The notes beneath the pieces are model-generated. The model was not told where the DNA came from and ran no database searches. It saw only the letters and a list, made by a program, of their open reading frames with translations. A stretch of 59,567 nt of DNA, filler included, from Dirinaria sp. TL-2023a (taxonomy: Eukaryota): the NCBI GenBank assembly GCA_051941275.1. It is 5 parts of 5 records of this genome, joined end to end, with 100 filler letters (N's around TTAATTAATTAA, not from the genome) between each part and the next. Parts side by side here need not be neighbours in the genome. Positions count along the whole stretch, not along the records: positions 11,949 to 23,795 come from JAVEBF010000812.1; 4 more parts are not named here. The stretch is one strand, 5' to 3'. Both the position numbers and the translations under genes were made by a program. Shown here in pieces: positions 11,849 to 47,756 of this stretch (positions are counted from its first letter, which is position 1; the number at the start of each line of letters is the position of its first letter).

Positions 11849-11948
11849 NNNNNNNNNNNNNNNNNNNNNNNNNNNNNNNNNNNNNNNNNNNNTTAATTAA
11901 TTAANNNNNNNNNNNNNNNNNNNNNNNNNNNNNNNNNNNNNNNNNNNN
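11849..11948. other. Artificial contig-joining linker (N44-TTAATTAATTAA-N44)
   Basis: Exactly 100 nt with a six-frame stop core; identical copies occur four times. Confidence 0.99.
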
Positions 11949-18696: not shown

Positions 18697-19944
18697 ATGT
18701 CTTCTATACCTATTGTGCTGTTATTAGGAGAGATTTATCACGCTAAGAAGGCTTGGGAAGATCTTTCAAAGATCGCAGAGCTTCGAGTAAGAAGGGTTCC
18801 TAGTCATCCAGCCTCAATGTTATTTCTATTGGGGTAAATGGAGACCACTGACCTAACCAAGACCAGCAAGTCAAAGCGGGTTGTAGATCACAGTTCTTAA
18901 GGGAGTGTGCAAACGGTGTTTATGATGGTCTGGTCGCTATCTCTAGGACCTATGAATCGATCGAGGTAGTCCTATCTCGATAGAGGATTAACTGGCGACG
19001 AAGCAATAAGCTTACTGTGCTCTGATCAATGGCAGATAACCGGAATGTTCGACGAAGAGCTTATCAGCGTTCTGCCCCCAACTGTCCAATTCGTATCACA
19101 CAATGGTGCAGGTTATGATCAGATTGACGTTGCCGCATGCAATAGAAGAGGTAAGGGAAATATCAACTAACAGCATTGCGTTCAATTTATTGAACGTCTA
19201 TAGGCATATCCGTTTCGAACACGCCACGTGTCGTCGATGCTGCTACAGCCGACGTAGCTATTTATCTTCTTCTTGGCGCGCTCCGCCGATTACATACTCC
19301 TTCTACTGCTATCCGCTCTGGAGCCTGGCGAGGCTCTATGAGCCTGGGTCATGACCCCGAGGGCAAAGTCCTTGGGATCCTTGGCATGGGTGGTATCGGT
19401 TCCGCTGTAGCATGCCGGGCTGCAGCTTTTGGCCTCAAAGTGCAGTACTATAATCGCCGGCCTGTCATGCCACACAAAAACGTCGCAAATGCTCGCCACG
19501 TCTCATTTGAAACGCTGCTAACGACGAGTGATCTGATAAGTGTGCATCTGCCCTTGTCTCCTGCGACGAAGCACCTGATTGGGGCGAAAGAATTCGCAAT
19601 GATGAGAGACGGAGTGGTCATTGTCAACACAGCCAGAGGCCCGATAATCGACGAACAGGCTCTTGTCGATGCGATGGAATGCGGTAAGGTTTTTGGAGCC
19701 GGGCTTGATGTGTATGAAAGGGAGCCTAAGGTTCACAGCGGGTTAATCGAGAGTGAGAAAGTGGTTCTCTTACCTCATATTGGCACAGCAACTTATGAAA
19801 CTCAAGTACGCCATCTTCTCAGTATGCGATGTGTTGGCTAAGGAGTCTAACAGTGATTAGTATGAGCTCGAAATTCTAGTCATCAAGAACGTTCGAAGCG
19901 CCTTGGAGAAGGGAGAACTGATTACACCGGTGGGGGATTTGTAA
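18697..19944 (+). CDS. D-isomer-specific 2-hydroxyacid dehydrogenase (glyoxylate reductase-like), 5 exons
   Basis: SHNGAGYDQID; GILGMGGIG Rossmann motif; VNTARG; GLDVYEREP; LLPHIGTAT. Confidence 0.93.
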
Positions 19945-20914: not shown

Positions 20915-21202
20915 TGTCATGAACCTAACCTATGCGCGGTCACGTGCAAGGTCCCGTGTTAGCCCTGGACCCTGGAGGACTCTGGTGGTGTAGGAGATGG
21001 TCTATATCAAGTTATCTTGGGAGTGGTGTTGTTGTTCTTCCCCGATTGAGGTTAGCGTCTTCGGACCGCGTTGATTCGATGTGTTGCTCACACACGTATT
21101 TATTTACACTGCCTGTACTTAGATTTCTTCTTTTTCTTCTCTAGAGTTAGTTTCCTAGTCTAGTATTACCCACATGCTATGTTCGCTGTGCAGGCCTTGA
21201 CA
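20915..21202. mobile_element. Solo LTR, family A (288 bp)
   Basis: TGTCA...TGACA termini; 5-bp TSD CATAC/TATAC; homologous in inverted orientation to 22697-22941. Confidence 0.8.
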
Positions 21203-21359
21203 TATACTTGCATACCCTCTGACATGCTTCCTAACTGCAATTAGAAGTGCATTTGACATGCAATTAGATCTATCAAAAAAAGCTTTTAAAAGATGTGTTT
21301 CAGGTTCAAAATACTCCTAAGAAGCCCTGTGAGAAGGTTGAGAAAATCATCTGTTTAAT

Positions 21360-21763
21360 TGTTGCGATCTACTCACGTCGTCTAAGGCCAGACTAATAAG
21401 AGGCCTAGGTTTGGTCTTGTATGGAGAGGTCTGTCAAGGAACAACGAGTGCCACTGTGATATGGCGAATATCACACAAGATACTTTAGTACTTAATCCAG
21501 TAGTAGACAAGTTAACTGAAGTTGAACACGATGCCAAAAGAGCGTCGTGTTGGAGATCTATGTACACATTCCAATTTCCCTCCCAGCTATTCCAGATGTT
21601 CCAGTAGCCCTGTCTAGAAATCTAGATAGCTAGACGGCTAGACTCCAGCCATTCCAGATACGCCTTGGCATATCTAGAACCGCTAGAACTCTCTCCTCTT
21701 GGCAAGCCCGCTAGCCAGGGTCTTGCTTACTTAATCTTGTTCGATCCCTCTAGGGTCGTAACA
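21360..21763. mobile_element. Solo LTR, family B (404 bp)
   Basis: TGTTGCGA...TCGTAACA termini; perfect 5-bp TSD TTAAT (21355-21359 and 21764-21768). Confidence 0.8.
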
Positions 21764-22121
21764 TTAATATGATATACAGGTATCCTTCTCAAGCATCTTC
21801 TCATCATTCCTCATGGCTCATGAACTGTCGTGTTTACGGGGTTTGTTTGTTATCAGATTAGATCTAGATGCTGCCCAAATAGATTTAGTGGTTAGGGTGG
21901 TGTGTATCTAGTGGGAGCCTATTAAAATAAGGCTCCCGCTAAGAACACACCCCCCCTTCCAGGCTGCACACCCCCTCCTCTCTCTATAACATGTCAGCTT
22001 CATACATGCTTATCGCTCAAACAATGTCTTGGAACTCCTTCAAGACATTTAGTATCAATATTATATGACCATGCTCACGCTATCATGACTTGTTCTTGTA
22101 AGCTACCTTACACTTCTACCG

Positions 22122-22591
22122 TCTTACGACCCTGGAAACAAAGTCAATTAGTAAGATAGGCACCAAGTCCTTTGACTTGGTTTAGTTAATCTTTTGGCCA
22201 TGTCGGGACTTTTACCATTGGGAAACCTATCTAACCAAGGTTGGGTCTTTGACATTAAACCAAGTCAACACGGTCGCAAGGTTCTGAGTTCGATTCTCAG
22301 CTCGAACGTTTGAAGGGTTTTCGGGTTTTCGGCGAGGCTTTACGGCTGAGAGCTTACTAAGCTCGGGGCGACTACTTAACCATTTTCACTAAGGCGAACC
22401 TTCTATCACACCCTGAGCGCTGAGCTTCGGGACGAAGCTCAGAGAGGGACTCGGATAGTGTTACGACTCTGGAAACAAAACCAAGTAGTAAGATAGGCAT
22501 CAAGTCCTTTGACTTGGTTTAGTTAGTCTTTTGGTCATGCCGGGACTTTTACCATTGGGAAACCTATCTAACCAAGGTTGGGTCTTTGATA
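22122..22591 (+). mobile_element. Miniature non-autonomous LTR retrotransposon (TRIM-like), 470 bp
   Basis: 133-bp LTRs at 22122-22254 and 22459-22591 (10 mismatches, 8 of them transitions); consensus TG..CA ends; TSD TACCG/TATCG; 204-bp non-coding interior; purine-rich AGAGAGGGACTCGGATAG just before the 3' LTR. Confidence 0.88.
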
Positions 22592-22696
22592 TATCGTGTC
22601 TCGTGTGCTCAGGATAGTCTCTGATAGATCGAACCCTAACCCTAAAATCTTCTTCCGAGCCTTCTAAAAGTTCACTACTTTTCGGTACTTAAAAAT

Positions 22697-22941
22697 TGTC
22701 ATGGCCTGCACAGCGCTCATAGGCATATGGGTACTACTAGACTAGGACACTAAGTATGAGGAAGGAAAAGAAGAAAAAGAGGAAGAATACTAAGTACAGA
22801 AACCAAATAGGGGACCGGGCAATACACGGACCGAAGGCGCTAACCCGATCAAGCTGATATACCCAACTCAGGCTCCCCAGGGTCATGCTTCAGGGTCCAG
22901 GCTAGTCACGTGAACTAACCCTCCAGGTCAGGTTCATGACA
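22697..22941. mobile_element. Solo LTR, family A (245 bp), inverted relative to 20915-21202
   Basis: TGTCATG...CATGACA termini; perfect TSD AAAAT; shares GGCCTGCACAGCG...ACTAGACTAGG with the other copy. Confidence 0.85.
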
Positions 22942-23795
22942 AAAATCATAATTACTTGATGAATTCTATAGAGTATAAACCATTAATTAATACATCATCT
23001 ACATCATTTGAATTTACTATTGTCATTGAGTATCATGACTTCAACAAAATCGGTATTTCGTGATCGTTCTGAGCAAAATTCTCCCTCGAACTCTCGAAGT
23101 CGCTTAAAACTAGAACTTCTGCTCTCGAGAGGATAAGTTCAAAACATCGTCTCATCACCGCATCTTCTTTCTCACTTCAATTGATAAATTAGATCTAAGA
23201 ATCTGACGACATTGTAAACACTTCAAGCATAAAAACTTAAATGAGAAAGAGAGTGTGGTGATGAGGATTCTAATGTTTTGAAATAGTCGATTAAAAGCAT
23301 AAGCCCTAGCCCTAAGCGGTCTCGGAGGATGATTTCTCCTAGCACGAGTACGATTAACAAATCTCGGGTACGAATTCGGAATAAGGGCCGCCTTGAATTA
23401 TACATAATTCTCTATACTACGGAGACAGCGTTGGCGGATCTACGATTCGCTCACTCGAAAAACAGAATCGACACGTAATGATTTCGCATCTCTGATAAGC
23501 ATAGCCATCAGGCAGCAGCTCCCCCTGTCAAAATTAGGTGATAAAACGCATAATTACTATCTAGAAACTGAGAGAGCAACTCATCTATAATATACAAAGA
23601 GTTGATCACGTGCCGAGTAACATTACTCGACACGTGACATCGGGTAATCTTGCCCGGCACGTGACACAGAGGTCAGCACATAGAATTCCAACACCCTCTA
23701 CGTTTCAAGAGGCGCCATATAGGCATCATCCGTGCATCATTGAAGATTTAACGGGCTCGCGCGATCCTCACCTGCGTCGCGCGACCATAAAGCGG

Positions 23796-23895
23796 NNNNN
23801 NNNNNNNNNNNNNNNNNNNNNNNNNNNNNNNNNNNNNNNTTAATTAATTAANNNNNNNNNNNNNNNNNNNNNNNNNNNNNNNNNNNNNNNNNNNN
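23796..23895. other. Artificial contig-joining linker
   Basis: N44-TTAATTAATTAA-N44. Confidence 0.99.
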
Positions 23896-26800
23896 CGACG
23901 CCCGCCCCGACACCGCCCACGGCATTCACCACCCCGACCTCTCCGTTCGGCCCAACAACATCTTCCCACACACTGACCGCGATCCCCGTCCGGGCAACGC
24001 GTTCAAAGGCGCTCTCCCCGAGCTGCGCATCCAGCAGCACTTCGCCCTTGGTGTTGCCGTTGACCATGATCCTCTTCTCTCGGAGATGCGCCGCGGTGCT
24101 CGGCCGGGACCCGTCTGCTGCTGCTGCAGACCCAGGATGCAATCCCGGCGGCGTGGCCTGCATGATCGTCAAGCGCGCCTTGCCCATATCGCGCCATCGG
24201 GAGGCGGTCTCGCGGATGTAGAGGCGGATCTGCGCGTTGCTGAGGCCCATCTTCTCTGCGTTCATCCCGGGTGGCAGAGGCGTGCTGGCGCCGCTGCCAC
24301 TCGCACCGCTCCCGCTAGAGTTGTCCGAGCTCGTGTATACGCTGTTGGCGCGGCTCCCGATCCGAGAACTGATGGTGCTGCGGGAGATATTGAACATCCC
24401 GCCTCCAAAGCCACTGAAGCGTCGAAGAGCTGAAAAAGCGCTGCTCATTGTGCCGATGCTGCTCTCGCTGGCGGCGATACTAGCTGAGCGACCGCTGCTG
24501 GCTCGGTAGCTCGGTGAGCGCCCGATCCCGAACCATGAGCCGCTTCGTGAGCCGCCTTGGACGCTGGCACGGCGATCCATAGAGGACGCGGTGGTCGTGG
24601 GCGGACGAGCGTTCTGCAAGGCGATGTAGGTAGGATTGTTGATACGGGAATGATTGATCAGGGCGTAGAGAGCCTCGCATTCCTCTGGGTTGCGTGAACG
24701 AAACATGAAATGGGTATTCGTGGTGATCTGTGATTTCGGAGTCGGGCGTGACCGGACAGAGATGTCGATAGCGGTCCCACGACGGATTGGCACCAGAGGC
24801 GTAAGCTCCAAGGCTATGAGCGGAGACCGTGATAGCGTCTGTTCTTTCTCGGATAAAATAACTGAGGTATTTTCCGAAAAGGCTTTCACATCCTCGACGG
24901 GCGCAGGTGCTGAAATAGGCTTGTCATTTGAGTGAGCGGCCGACATCTCATAAGCTTCAATGAGGCCTGGAGTGACCACTATGCTACACTCATCTGGATG
25001 AATGCTTTGCCACGAGCCACTGTCAGCCCAGAAGAAAATTGATGCGATCGTCTTGGAAGCTTTTTTGGGCTGAATGGGCACAGCTCGGTAGGGCGATTGT
25101 GATGCAGAATTTGAAGGTGCAAGCGTGCCCGTTGGCGGAGAATAGAGCGAAGCTGGAGGAGTAGGCCCCTTGAAAGGTGGCACAATCCCCAATGGCATCA
25201 GTGGTGTCGCAACATCGCCTTGCTCCAGATCCTCATCGTCGGAAGAGTCAGACACCGAGCTTGGCTCATTGTGCGCTACCGTAGATGCATCTCCGTCCGA
25301 AGATGATTCTGATGCAGTTGACGGTTCGTATTCATGTTTCAAAGGGGACGAAGAGCGCCTGGGGCGTGGGTTTCTAGGACTGAATACTGGTATTTGAGGG
25401 CTCTTGGTCTGGCTGGGACTTGGGGTTGTGTGGGCCGGCGTAGGCGGAGGTATAGGCTCTGCCTGCTTTGAGCCAAGTGTAGAAGGATCCTCCTTGGTCG
25501 AACCCGATGGCGCGCCTGCGGACTCATTCTGAGGAGTCTTAGGCCATTCGGGCTCCTCTTCAGGCTCTTCAATGGGTGTTGTCGGTGGACTTTCTTTCCG
25601 CACTTTTGGAATTGTCGGAAAATCCATTGAAGGTACAGATGATCCTGATCTACTTGGAGATGGACGTGCATTTTTATTCTTATTGTGGCTCAGATTCGAA
25701 TTGCTGTGACATGCATCATAGACGGGCGATAACGATCTGTGGTCAGGAGAAGTTGCCTTTTGATCTAGTTTCGAATCTGTAGTTTGACGGCCAATTGTCG
25801 GGTTGTGATCCAATGGTTCACTGGAAACAGAGGGCTTTGAAACAGGGCTGCTCAAGGAATCATCAGCTTTTCTTGAAGTTCTCTTCGCTTTGGTTCTTCT
25901 AATCCCTGACATAGAACTCGTCCCGCTAAAACCTAAAGCTTCATTTAAACTTCGAGGAGTCCGCATTGATTCTGATGTTCGCGGGCTCCTCTGCTTTGGG
26001 GACGTTCGCGGATCATTGACACTGTGGGAGTTGGTTTCCAAAGCCTTGGTAGGCGTCCTCGGAGGTGATTTAGGTAAAGGTTTCTTGTGTAGCCTCGCGT
26101 TTTCTCCACTTGAGGCGCCAGACCCATGCAGAAAGTTATCCAGCCAAGATCTTGATGTCCCTTGGGCCTGTGTCTCTTGGGCTTGTTCGCCCATTGGAAT
26201 TTCAACCTCTCGCGGGCTGGGAGTCCGGCTTTTGCCAGGGCTGGGAGATGCAGCCGGAGCTTCTAGATTTGCTGCTACGTTCTCACTGGTTTTAGTTTTC
26301 TGATGCTTCCTCAGAAAACTTTGGACTCTCATCATTTTTGGAGGTATTGGAGTCAGCCCGAGCATCTGAACCCATTCAAATCCTGTTTGTTCATCCTCCG
26401 AACGTAAAGCAAGAAGCTCGTGCCATTCTGACCCGGACGTTGAGATTCCCCTAACCATGACCACGATTTCACCTTTCCTATCACCGTTGCGAGCTGAGAC
26501 GTAGCTGAGCTGGATAGGAGGAAATAAGAGCCATCGCCCGCTACCATCGACCTCGCAAATCAGAAGATCACCGCCGCCAGCAGCCTGTGAAGTGGCCTCG
26601 TCGCGGAGAAGCAGCTCAACGCAACAATCAAGAAGTTGTCCGCTCGAATGTTGGAGGGAAAGGTTGAAATGATCACGAGCCCTCACATGCCTTGTCTTGT
26701 CGATGCTGACGCCCGTTAGAGGGGCAAGTGTCCTTGGATTGCGAGCCCTAGTAGGATCTATACTGGCAGCCGCTTCATCTTCCAGTCTGGCTCGCTCCTC

Positions 26801-29344
26801 GTTTGATCGATTGCGAGCGTCTATAACAAGATTCTGGTAGTTTATAGAAAGGGTCCCAGCTTCAGGTGAAGGTTTGACAAAGTGAATACCTTTGAGTGTC
26901 TTGGACAAATACTTGAGGCGAACGAGTGGTCGCTTCAACAAGAAAGCAACATCTACTCTCTCACCATCTCCATTGATGATGTCGCCGTCCTTATTTCTCG
27001 GAAGGCCCTCGTCAAGCTCGTCCGTTTTCTCAGAGCTGCCTGTTGAAGTCTCCGCAGCAGGGGCGAGATTAACCACGACGTCTTGGAATCCCATACGCCA
27101 AGCTTTGATGTATTCTGTGTAGACTCTCTGCGCGCCATGGGCCCACGTCAAGAAAGCACGGACATCCTGTTGAGGTATACGTTTATGCAGTGCCTTGAGT
27201 CGTTCAAGGGCTATTCCCATATCAACGATTGGCTTGGTGAAATTCAGGTCCTCGCTGGATGCTGCAGAAGGCCGAAACAGTCCTGCGGCTATTGCTGAAT
27301 CCGACTTTGATAGCACGCATGTCAGCAGTACTGGGATTACTCCGTCCACTAGTGTACGCAATTCGCGCATGTACTTGGTTTCGTCCGTCGAAAGCTCATG
27401 CATGAGGTCCTCGACTGTAGCGGTAGCAAGTCTGCTTCGATTCGTACGTATGCTCCGCGCGGATACGATGCTTTTATTACCGGCTTTGGGTAAGGACAAA
27501 ACAGACATTAAATCAGCATGTTTAGCGAGTCGGCTCCGGGTCTGTTCCAGCGAGTGTGGATCGAAACGATCCTTGGCTTCGGTCTCAACTTCATCCTCTT
27601 CGATAGCTGGAGCTAGAGCGGTAGCTTCGGATGCCTCTGATACCGAAGGAGCTGCAGCCTGAGCTTTTGAGTTGAAGGTCTCTACCGATGCGATTGTAGA
27701 AAGGCGATGTTGCCCAGTAGAGGGGAAAGGGCGTTTGGAGGTGATCCCAGGTGGTCGTAAAGGCGAGATCACAGGTAATTCTTCGACAGGGGATGGGCTC
27801 GTGGCGGAGGATATCGCCGAGCGAGCACCATCCGGATCAGGGACTTCCCCCAATACGCCTGACTTTCGCCGCTGGCACGTGGGCGATGCTGGAGATCTTT
27901 TCGCTCCTCGTCTTCTGATTGGAGAAGGGAAGGGAGCTAAATCCGGAGCATCGTGTGTGATGTCTACTAATTTCAAGGCTGCTTCAGATCCAGTCGCAGA
28001 GCCGTTGATCTGAGGTTCAGCATCGAAGTTATCAGGAAAAGGATTGTCTTCTTGGATTGCTGAACTGCGAATCCTTCTCTTTCTTCGACTGCCCGTGACG
28101 TGGCGCCGTGTGCCATCCTTCGAATCCAAAGCCTCCCAGATTTTATTTGGATCTTCAATAGGAACCCGTTCAGATTCACATCCAGGCTCAGTCTCAAGCT
28201 TAGGATCGCCATTTGGCAATGTCTCCACGTCAGAATCTGGTTTCTCTTCTTCGAGGGTTGGTCGCAACGGAGGGATGGTCTCAATTGGCAGCTGTTCCCC
28301 ATCGACGAAAGGATCAGGGGTTTCACTCAGCCAAGCTTCGATGCTAGGTACCCTTGGAGTAGCGATGTCTGGTGGCTGATGCTTCGAGAAAATCTTCTTC
28401 GGTCCTCCGAGTACATGGCTTAGAATTTTATCTTTGTGAGCCTTGGTACTTGTCCTTTGGTCCGCGAACCCTCCGGATTCAGATTTTCGTGACTCATCTT
28501 CTGGCGAACTTATTCGCTTGTGACTTTTTATTCTCGTAGGCGGATCCTCTGTTAGAAATGGACCTTCCCGTCGCGATCTCTCTCCCTGTTGCTTTCCAGA
28601 AGACTCTTGTTGTGGGGACGCACTTCTCGATCTCGCACTCTTTATGTCGCCACAATCACTGCTGCGACCACCAGCGCTTTGTCTTTTCCATCGCTCGGGA
28701 TCCTTTCGTAAGCTGGGAGTCGTAGTGGATATTTCGACGCCATTATCTTTCCGTGCATGGTAGTACTCTTTCGTTGGCGACTTTCTCTCAGCTCGTTTGT
28801 CGCGGATAGCACTTTTTCTAGGCTCTGATACAGGCGTGACTCTGATGCCATCATCTGGAGTCTCTTTTCCGGGGGTTACGCCTCTTCTGGCCTCCTGGCT
28901 TCGTGGGCTTCCTGTCGGACTCCTGTTCGCTCTCCAGTGAGCATCGCTCACTACTCGCTTTGCTGGAGTACTGCGACTTCGACTTCGCTTGTTTTCCTTC
29001 TGTGCGCTTGGAGATACCTTTTGGCCCCCTCTTTTGCAAGGTTCCGTTGTTCCATCAAGATGCTTGTCGGCGCTTCTAGCTCCTGACGCCTTGCGCGCAG
29101 CGCTCGATTTCTGGGGTTGACGATTCTCCAAGCTCTTCTCCTCCTTTTCCTCATCGGTCTTATAACTATCAGGAGTTGTGATTACTCCTCCACCTTGCGC
29201 CTGCCATTGGCGAACCCGATCACGAACCGACGCAGTATCATAAACCCCCAATGGTTTACCAATATCCACGGGCTTGGACTTTGTGGGGGTCGTCAATGTA
29301 CCACGGCTAGTTAGGCTCCTTCTAGACGTAGCTGGGGAGGGCAT
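23896..29344 (-). CDS. Large (>1800 aa) fungal protein with a Dbl-homology-like helical domain and probable PH-like domains; C-terminus truncated
   Basis: Single uninterrupted ORF; ELSTDETKYMRELRTLVDGVIPVLL...FLLKRPLVRLKYL resembles DH conserved regions; beta-rich blocks are separated by Ser/Pro-rich disorder. Confidence 0.75.
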
Positions 29345-31327
29345 TGGTGACAATTCAACGTCCGCTTTTCCTCATATTAAGGGAGTGTCACGCTCCATAC
29401 GGGGAACCCGGAGATCGTGCTGTTGAGCGTTTGTTTACCGGCTTATCGCGGATTGGGCCTACGGTTCCTAATACCCTCTGCTGTTGGCAATTCCCAAAGA
29501 AACGGATCGTCAAACGGCCAAGTCGGTACAGATCGGCTTCTTCTCTCACAATTAGATCACTGATGTTGGGTGCTCGAAGTGAGAAGGTTCTGAAAGTTCC
29601 ATGGGCCCATAGCAACGACGCTAACTTGATCGGTCCGCGTAAGCTCCTCGTGTTTATCTGCCGGACAACTCCACCTTTATTATTTATTTCAAACCTTTTG
29701 TGTTAGGAAAGAAGGACCATGCTATACAAGTGCGCGCGAATTCTATTCCAGAGCATTGTTTGCTGCCATAACGTCTCTCGCTCAGATCTCGCATGTTTAC
29801 ATTAATGTTGTGTGTCGGGTGCAACTACCCGGTTGGCTCCGCAAACAGGTTTTCGATGTTGGACTTGGCGAAAACCTGCGGAAGCAAGACGAAGTCCTAG
29901 CCTGGAGAATGTGAAGAGCGATTGGAACGATCTTCACCGAGATGCCTATGGAGCACTGACTGGCGACATTGCTGCTCCCGCTACATTCAGCCCTAAAGCA
30001 CCGCTAAGTCGAGGTCCCGGATAAGTCCATAATCAAATTTCTCACATTAATTTCCTTCTCGTACTCTCTGTGAACTTCAATGCCACACTTCAATTTAGTT
30101 TTCTATCAGCGTTAAGAATGAATCTAGCAATGACGCCTATCATGCCTTCCCAGAAGGATACAGCTGTCAGCGAGAGAAACTCGAAGAACAATGTCGAATG
30201 GGCGCATCAGAATATACAGATCAAGCGTTAGACGCGTTCAATGTCATCGTCCTGGAGGAACCCTGTCTTCAGGATGAATCTTTACAAGTTGAGCGGCAGT
30301 ACCTGAAGACACAATCCATTACAGACCTTGGCCCCAACGGAAGGATCCAAGTATGTAGGATTAAGTATAGAACGTTCGAACCAGTGAAGCCCTTTGCCGA
30401 ATACTTTCTAACTCTCGGCTTCCAAATTGGCTAATTAATCGACATCGGAAGACTCATCTATGAAGCTAAACACTGTTTACGCAAAGGCTCACGATATGCC
30501 CAGAGTTCTGTATGCTAAAGGCATTCAAATATGGGGCGCGCCTGGTCGCATCGGCGCAACTAGGTAACTTCTCCTTCGGTATGACGCTTTAATGGCAATT
30601 AAATAGGTTGGGCAAGCTAGGTACTGAGATAGAGTAGGTCGAACATAATTCATGGAAAGTCACTTTTTAGGTGCTGGAAACGTGACCAGAGCCTTCCTAA
30701 TTGACCTAAATTCCATCGCCGCGAAATCAGTGACCGACTTCTACCACCAGGCCCTGTCTGCTGTGACACATGGCATCGCTTGTTCAAACTCGGGCGGTAA
30801 AGTCGTTAGAGCTGGCGTAATGAGCGGGTCCGCAGATAAAGAAGTACGGAAGCCGGAAAGCTTCTCGAGCGTTAGGGTAGTGGCTTGGTAGAGCCAAAGC
30901 CGAAAGGCTGAATAAGTCGTACAGGGAGTGGCATTCAATTACCCACGCCTTACTTTCACGCCTGATTGAAGCTATTGCCGTAGGTATCACTGGACATGTT
31001 CTCGCATAAACTTTGCCAGGGACTTGATAGTTATGTCCGAATTAGCAGTCATCAAGTGGATTGACACATAAGTTGCTGGTTTAGCAAGCCAAGGTAGCGG
31101 CGCTGAATCCGCGCTGGCGGCTCTTTCACTGCTTGTCTACCAAAAGTTGAAGAGACCTGAGATCCTCTTTTGCTATCTATTATTATTGCCTCATCACTCT
31201 TTAGCGCTAATGGACCCACCAACTCCAGGCTTGAAAGCTGGTAACATAAGATGCCTAATGGCTCATCGACCCAATGCAACGATGGAGCTAGTGGCCGCTG
31301 GGAAAGAACTTGAATGTGCTCTGATCT

Positions 31328-35738: not shown

Positions 35739-35838
35739 NNNNNNNNNNNNNNNNNNNNNNNNNNNNNNNNNNNNNNNNNNNNTTAATTAATTAANNNNNN
35801 NNNNNNNNNNNNNNNNNNNNNNNNNNNNNNNNNNNNNN
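35739..35838. other. Artificial contig-joining linker
   Basis: N44-TTAATTAATTAA-N44. Confidence 0.99.
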
Positions 35839-47656: not shown

Positions 47657-47756
47657 NNNNNNNNNNNNNNNNNNNNNNNNNNNNNNNNNNNNNNNNNNNN
47701 TTAATTAATTAANNNNNNNNNNNNNNNNNNNNNNNNNNNNNNNNNNNNNNNNNNNN
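47657..47756. other. Artificial contig-joining linker
   Basis: N44-TTAATTAATTAA-N44. Confidence 0.99.

Follow-up and report, generated by a model that had tools for sequence, protein, structure and literature searches.

The fungal retrotransposons that come closest in priming to the element described here are Tf1 and Tf2 of Schizosaccharomyces pombe, Tj1 and a set of self-primers predicted in filamentous fungi, all from the Tf1/sushi group of chromoviruses; the primer-binding site in these elements matches part of their own LTR in reverse complement, not the end of a tRNA. Self-priming has been demonstrated for Tf1: in the passages of PMC7175516 that deal with priming, the first 11 nucleotides of the RNA pair with the primer-binding site and RNase H cuts after nucleotide 11. 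The Tf1 leader is portrayed in the corresponding part of a second paper as a three-duplex 'pretzel' that is needed for priming (PMC10085805). Maggy, Skippy, Cft-1, Boty, Grasshopper and Afut1 are given as predicted self-primers in the relevant passage of a bivalve paper, which there mentions self-priming only as a comparison (PMC6934838), and a published screen for self-primers, as outlined in a section of PMC6317226, looked for at least 10 bp of complementarity beginning 0–5 bp after the 5′ LTR.

In build, the nearest counterparts are the described non-autonomous miniature LTR elements (TRIMs), with which our element has in common its size, a pair of short LTRs, an interior that has a primer site and a purine tract but no coding capacity, a 5-bp target-site duplication (TSD) and a presumed dependence on a helper; the described TRIMs have primer sites of the tRNA type or none assigned, and the one studied here has a site of the self type. 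Helenus/TRIMp3 and Cassandra resemble it in being TRIMs with a sequence like that of a small RNA, and fungal Helenus elements, as characterised in the sections of Kojima (2024) that concern them, also have a 5-bp TSD. Those sections place a complete tRNA-like unit, box A and box B included, within each Helenus LTR, match the primer sites of fungal Helenus to the 3′ end or anticodon loop of a tRNA, state that the author found the tRNA-like part of the LTR not to be complementary to the primer site, and report Helenus from Pucciniales and a few Agaricomycetes, with no ascomycete among the hosts named there (PMC10886601). They also name the precedents for TRIMs with Pol III-type promoters, Cassandra being the established one and Helenus and Ajax proposed (PMC10886601). 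The defining feature of Helenus/TRIMp3, tRNA-derived boxes A and B inside the LTR, is absent from our element: its LTR has no tRNA likeness, and only about 33 nt resembling a T-arm and the 3′ strand of an acceptor stem are found in its interior. A literature search covering main texts found no described self-priming TRIM and no lichen TRIM.

The element occupies positions 22122–22591 of the window, which is the whole stretch of joined Dirinaria sp. TL-2023a DNA that was analysed (59.5 kb). As judged from its sequence, it fits both the definition of a TRIM and the sequence criterion for Tf1-type self-priming, and we think it fairly probable that it is a member, by now old and mutated, of a TRIM family that lichen-type fungi carry and that primes itself as Tf1 does. 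Its parts are as follows.

22117–22121, plus strand: left target-site duplication, TACCG (4 of 5 positions match 22592–22596)
22122–22254, plus strand: 5′ LTR, 133 bp, beginning TC (originally TG) and ending CA (sequence reading, repeat finder)
22172–22184, plus strand: putative self-primer in the 5′ LTR, at the inferred start of R, overlapping the A-box-like motif at 22178–22189 (shuffles, fold ensemble)
22199–22212, plus strand: 5′ arm of a possible U5 stem, pairing with 22242–22255 (−10.9 kcal/mol, which 6.5–14% of shuffles reach)
22227–22296, plus strand: 70-nt block made up of the end of U5, the primer site and 28 nt of leader (no listed difference in X1, X2 or X3)
22242–22255, plus strand: 3′ arm of the possible U5 stem, adjoining the primer site on its upstream side (fold ensemble, shuffles)
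22256–22268, plus strand: primer-binding site of the self-priming type (complementarity; no listed difference in 5 spanning contigs of relatives)
22276–22308, plus strand: tRNA-like piece, comprising only a variable loop, T-arm, acceptor 3′ strand and discriminator (5′-truncated RF00005 match, 12.0 bits, E 2.1, gathering threshold 29)
22284–22300, plus strand: T-arm-like hairpin with a B-box-like core (sequence; pairing probability only about 0.2)
22420–22442, plus strand: perfect 10-bp hairpin with a GGA loop, immediately before the purine tract (sequence reading)
22441–22458, plus strand: putative polypurine-tract region, with the purine run AGAGAGGGA at 22441–22449, reaching the 3′ LTR (function suggested by position)
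22459–22591, plus strand: 3′ LTR, 133 bp, beginning TG and ending TA (originally CA), with a second copy of the primer at 22509–22521 (sequence, repeat finder)
22592–22596, plus strand: right target-site duplication, TATCG (4 of 5 positions match 22117–22121)

The paired LTRs, the TSD and an interior devoid of ORFs, all claimed in a preliminary description made from this DNA, were recovered in our analysis. The two LTRs differ at 10 of their 133 positions (8 transitions and 2 transversions), and their TG..CA ends, a feature shared with the Tf1/sushi group, have decayed by one point change each; the original TG at the start of the LTR is visible in a loose contig end of the relative run X3. Within the 204-bp interior (22255–22458), the purine run lies 9 nt upstream of the 3′ LTR and makes for a modest tract, and the pentamers CTGAG and CTCAG occur 6 times, versus about 0.4 expected. 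The longest ATG-initiated ORF touching the element encodes 42 amino acids; U3 measures only 50 nt; and of runs of T there are seven of length four and none longer, as had been noted earlier. Short LTRs, a non-coding interior, a self-type primer site, a purine tract, a TSD and relatives at other sites are thus all present, and the anatomy, together with a primer site that pairs with the element's own LTR, bears out the earlier assignment to the non-autonomous, TRIM-like LTR elements.

The differences between the LTRs also speak to the history of the copy. In half of the 8 LTR transitions, and likewise in the TSD mismatch, the first C of a CC dinucleotide has become T. At the four leader positions where relatives differ from the element, they have C for T (22297, 22302 and 22309) or G for A (22305); the context is CC or GG at three of them, and all four are of the kind expected from C-to-T or G-to-A hits on this copy. 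Changes of this type in the LTRs, TSD and leader indicate that the copy is old and mutated.

The evidence for self-priming rests first on complementarity. A repeat finder showed that 22256–22268 is the exact reverse complement of both 22172–22184 and 22509–22521, so that the primer complementarity is 13 of 13, beginning 2 nt past the CA of the 5′ LTR and hence within the limits of the published self-primer screen (PMC6317226). When the LTR was shuffled 20,000 times, matches went no higher than 11 of 13 (reached in 68 shuffles), with none of 12 or 13, which upholds the earlier observation that the primer site matches the element's own LTR and not the 3′ end of a tRNA. The duplex is 13 nt long, compared with 11 nt in Tf1. 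Folding of the RNA 22172–22312 gave −43.7 kcal/mol (z −3.33), with 2 of 200 shuffles equally stable, and in the fold ensemble the duplex of primer and site had a pairing probability of 0.61–1.0. When set against the three duplexes of the Tf1 'pretzel', the central one was clear; the stem between the end of U5 and the LTR segment behind the primer was weak; and a third duplex, between leader and LTR, was not detectable above shuffles, 47% of which reached the same value. The element differs further from the Tf1/sushi group in the tRNA-like piece after its primer site, in its size (470 bp versus about 5 kb) and in having no genes. With no ORF longer than 42 amino acids, and so no gag-pol with a chromodomain integrase, it could be only a dependant of a Tf1/sushi-type element, not a member of that group by genes.

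Relatives of the element were found in public sequencing runs. Twelve runs shared words with it, in small shares, and four of these, from four studies, were compared (X4–X6 and X8–X12 were left out): the DNA runs X1 and X3 and the RNA libraries X7 and X2 provided 10, 5, 4 and 1 contigs, respectively. All 20 contigs were 80–95% alike to the element. Two parts of the surroundings, 21962–22116 and 22613–22674, had no contig cover, the locus itself being absent from the compared runs, and because no contig covered the first of these parts, the relatives are copies elsewhere. At the LTR edge, loose contig ends passed into unlike flanks at 22256 in both X1 and X3 and at 22579 in X1, and one X1 contig lost its likeness at 22173, beside the inferred U3/R border. 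A 391-nt contig of X3 extended from U5 across the primer site and the interior to reach the 3′ LTR, with 128 letters in place of 101, which shows that this relative copy is miniature too. On the strength of these contigs, the element belongs to a family found in other organisms.

We know the relatives from difference tables that list only differences above a 10% share and that leave 19 indels undisplayed, so that 'no listed difference', as used here, is a weaker statement than 'identical'. With that reading, the primer site had no listed difference in the 5 contigs that span it, the primer copy had none in 5, and 3 contigs contained both. The preliminary description had proposed that conservation or covariation of the pairing between primer site and LTR would be informative: the pairing was conserved, inasmuch as no change was listed, and covariation could not appear because primer and site were invariant among the relatives seen. 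The invariance extended beyond the primer site to the whole 70-nt block (22227–22296), which had no listed difference in X1, X2 or X3, while U3 and 22297–22345 did vary.

The preliminary description had gone on to propose a split tRNA-type Pol III promoter, a proposal that our results do not support. The A-box-like motif does lie where it had been placed, at 22178–22189 and 22515–22526, overlapping the self-primer, but a promoter role for it found no backing. Of the 9 specified positions in what we take to be the A-box consensus, TRGCNNAGTGG, the motif matches only 6, without the conserved C and GG; matches as good as this, to the same consensus, numbered 1813 in the window versus 1734 expected, which is the level of chance; and since the motif coincides with the self-primer, self-primer pairing already explains its sequence. 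Matches to the B-box with at most 2 mismatches were likewise no more frequent than expected (144 versus 144). The two boxes are 109 nt apart, whereas in tRNA genes the distance is usually 30–60 nt. ARAGORN detected no tRNA in the 59.5-kb window, nor did Rfam detect one in 21000–24000 or 22165–22330. The RF00005 match appeared only once the stretch was cut at 22266, and it covered model positions 20–71 with the anticodon arm unaligned. At 12.0 bits versus a threshold of 29, and with neither a cloverleaf nor both promoter halves recognised, the element does not qualify as a tRNA gene or a tRNA-derived SINE.

The perfect T-arm-like hairpin at 22284–22300 (CTGAG, TTCGATT, CTCAG) is present exactly as had been described, and no other stem in the window combines 5 perfect base pairs and a TTCRANN loop. 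Because 24% of 300 simulated windows contained at least one such hairpin (mean 0.34 per 59.5 kb, or about 0.003 per 470-bp element), its occurrence is unremarkable per window and unlikely per element. Its pairing probability in the fold ensemble is low because a longer rival hairpin, 22281–22307, competes with it. In the relatives, the 3′ strand of the T stem differed in 3 of the 4 contigs that span it, the fourth being unreadable, with a share below the listing threshold: X2 and X3 have C at 22297, which produces an A-C mismatch, and one contig is short of 2 nt at 22298. The X7 contig diverges after 22297. The B-box core (22287–22296), on the other hand, had no listed change in 5 contigs of relatives. 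The question of whether other copies lack the T-arm and B-box, which the preliminary description had regarded as decisive against its proposal, therefore has a divided answer, in that the perfect T stem is absent from 3 of the 4 contigs and the B-box core is kept. Comparison with the relatives marks the perfect stem as peculiar to this copy, where it probably arose by a late C-to-T change.

If Pol III did transcribe the element, TFIIIC would be bound by a degenerate A-box in the LTR and by a B-box captured with the 3′ part of a tRNA, only the 5′ LTR would fire, and transcription would start just before the self-primer. The unchanged B-box core, the absence of T-runs longer than four, the 50-nt U3 and the precedents of Cassandra and, as proposed, Helenus and Ajax are all in keeping with such a promoter, as is the C at 22297 in X2 and X3, which is nearer to what we take to be the B-box consensus, GGTTCGANNCC. 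Yet the constancy of the core is not specific to the B-box, because the whole 70-nt block is equally invariant, and several results speak against the promoter: an A-box that matches at chance level and is the same sequence as the self-primer, B-box matches at their expected number, a tRNA model that recognises only a cut stretch at 12 bits, an overlong spacing and a T stem altered in 3 of 4 contigs. A relative in the RNA library X7 moreover carries a run of six Ts some 25 nt past the tRNA-like part, and its contig continues beyond them, which is weak evidence against Pol III because a contig cannot show where a transcript ends. We therefore consider Pol III transcription from these boxes very unlikely, and we give the same slender credence to the broader proposition of a self-priming TRIM family of lichen fungi in which an internal Pol III promoter, with its B-box captured along with a tRNA 3′ end, has been kept unchanged across species.

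A different function for the conserved leader, that of a hairpin used by helper proteins for packaging, dimerisation or primer cleavage, with its tRNA likeness due to mimicry or chance, would fit a block in which X1, X2 and X3 have no change listed, in contrast to the variable U3 and 22297–22345. Signals of the packaging, dimerisation and cleavage type are common in retroelement leaders beside the primer site; the fold favours the hairpin 22281–22307 over the T-arm; and the recurrence of CTGAG/CTCAG in the interior implies that the stem motif is native to the element. Against this explanation, conservation ends in the middle of the hairpin, pairing of leader and LTR is no better than in shuffles, and no change is compensatory, those at 22297, 22302 and 22309 each breaking a predicted pair and that at 22305 giving a wobble. 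We rate this explanation as unlikely. An internal deletion of an ordinary Gypsy element that happened only once, an alternative raised in the preliminary description, or else a chance pair of repeats, would explain why blastn within the 59.5-kb window found no copy besides the two LTRs, and why exact-pattern scans of public metagenome, genome and viral contigs with three stretches of the conserved block returned 0 matches. It is contradicted by the relatives, which have this miniature layout, are flanked differently and come from four runs, each of a different study, and we regard it as scarcely credible.

The reading that we prefer, of a self-priming TRIM, leaves the tRNA-like piece most likely either what remains in the leader of a tRNA or SINE 3′ end or a hairpin of the leader that looks like such an end, and the six interior copies of CTGAG/CTCAG imply that part of the likeness may stem from the element's own make-up. 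Among the points that count against this reading, a U3 of 50 nt is short for a Pol II promoter, and, so far as the aligned relatives go, a relic does not require an invariant B-box core or a C at 22297 that is nearer to the consensus. Some other origins for the tRNA-like piece were considered and set aside. A tRNA split between LTR (5′ half) and interior (3′ half) was rejected in that the 7 nt before the A-box-like motif fail, by eye, to pair with 22301–22307 and Rfam has no tRNA in 22165–22330. A captured pre-tRNA with its U-tail was ruled out by the C that relatives carry at 22309, which means that the TTT behind the 'discriminator' arose late in this copy. Read-through of the plus strand into a tRNA primer was dismissed on logic, as it would leave the antisense rather than the sense strand of the tRNA, and the idea that the T-arm had diverged from a duplicate of the hairpin at 22420–22442 was not sustained, 29% of shuffles attaining the same local similarity.

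For a self-priming TRIM of this layout, the following course of replication can be proposed. The genomic RNA would begin at or near 22172 in the 5′ LTR. As for ordinary TRIMs, Pol II or read-through is the most likely source of transcription; the relatives' contigs are present in two RNA libraries, a presence that does not show which polymerase made them. The first 13 nt of the RNA would fold back onto 22256–22268, the RNase H of a helper element would cut the duplex, and the freed 3′ end would prime the minus strand, while the purine tract before the 3′ LTR would prime the plus strand. Gag, reverse transcriptase and integrase would be supplied in trans by an autonomous Ty3/Gypsy element of the Tf1/sushi type, and the T-arm-like hairpin is a part of the conserved leader that adjoins the primer site. 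In the window, 12 of the 38 long ORFs were scanned, and none of these 12 encoded a reverse transcriptase or integrase, so that no autonomous partner was found among them.

A self-priming TRIM would extend Tf1-type self-priming to miniature elements without genes, whose leader would have to be cut by RNase H borrowed from a helper, and it would offer a compact natural substrate for the self-priming reaction, with about 100 nt from primer to binding site. For annotation, the locus counsels caution on two counts: finding a tRNA-like T-arm or B-box in a repeat is not proof of a Pol III promoter, and C-to-T hypermutation by the host may leave a hairpin 'perfect' as a by-product. Were the Pol III reading true, against the evidence assembled here, the concept of TRIMp3 would be broadened by a fourth kind of distinct structure, in which Pol III transcription and Tf1-type self-priming were combined for the first time. 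TFIIIC would then position transcription to begin at the self-primer, and the 5′ LTR alone would fire.

The surroundings of the element are gene-rich fungal DNA. There are 38 stop-to-stop ORFs of at least 150 amino acids in the window, and 11 of the 12 scanned match ordinary cellular Pfam families; in the joined window, the element's neighbours are a dehydrogenase gene fragment (19194–19841) and a DH-PH gene on the minus strand (23840–29371). Runs of 44 N occur in pairs at intervals of about 11.9 kb (11849–11948, 23796–23895, 35739–35838 and 47657–47756) and look like masking, not biology; one pair adjoins the end of the DH-PH ORF. The stretches 22695–22793 and 21925–21960 are covered by contigs from other runs whose flanks differ, which suggests that they are probably other dispersed repeats, and 21902–21950 forms a strong hairpin. 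The element and its flanks are bracketed by an 18-nt inverted repeat (21881–21898 and 22633–22650; 83% complementary) with telomere-like CCCTAA units, which we considered as the ends of a host MITE; by eye, no target duplication accompanies them. On the minus strand, 358 bp from the element and in the opposite direction, lies a solo LTR of 404 bp (21360–21763) with TG..CA ends, flanked by a perfect 5-bp duplication, ATTAA (21764–21768 and 21355–21359). Its first 12 nt are those of the inferred original start of the TRIM LTR, the remainder not being clearly alike, and this common start points to a shared integrase. The solo LTR may be the LTR of the helper family, and a loose end in X3 has an LTR start intermediate between it and the LTR of the TRIM.
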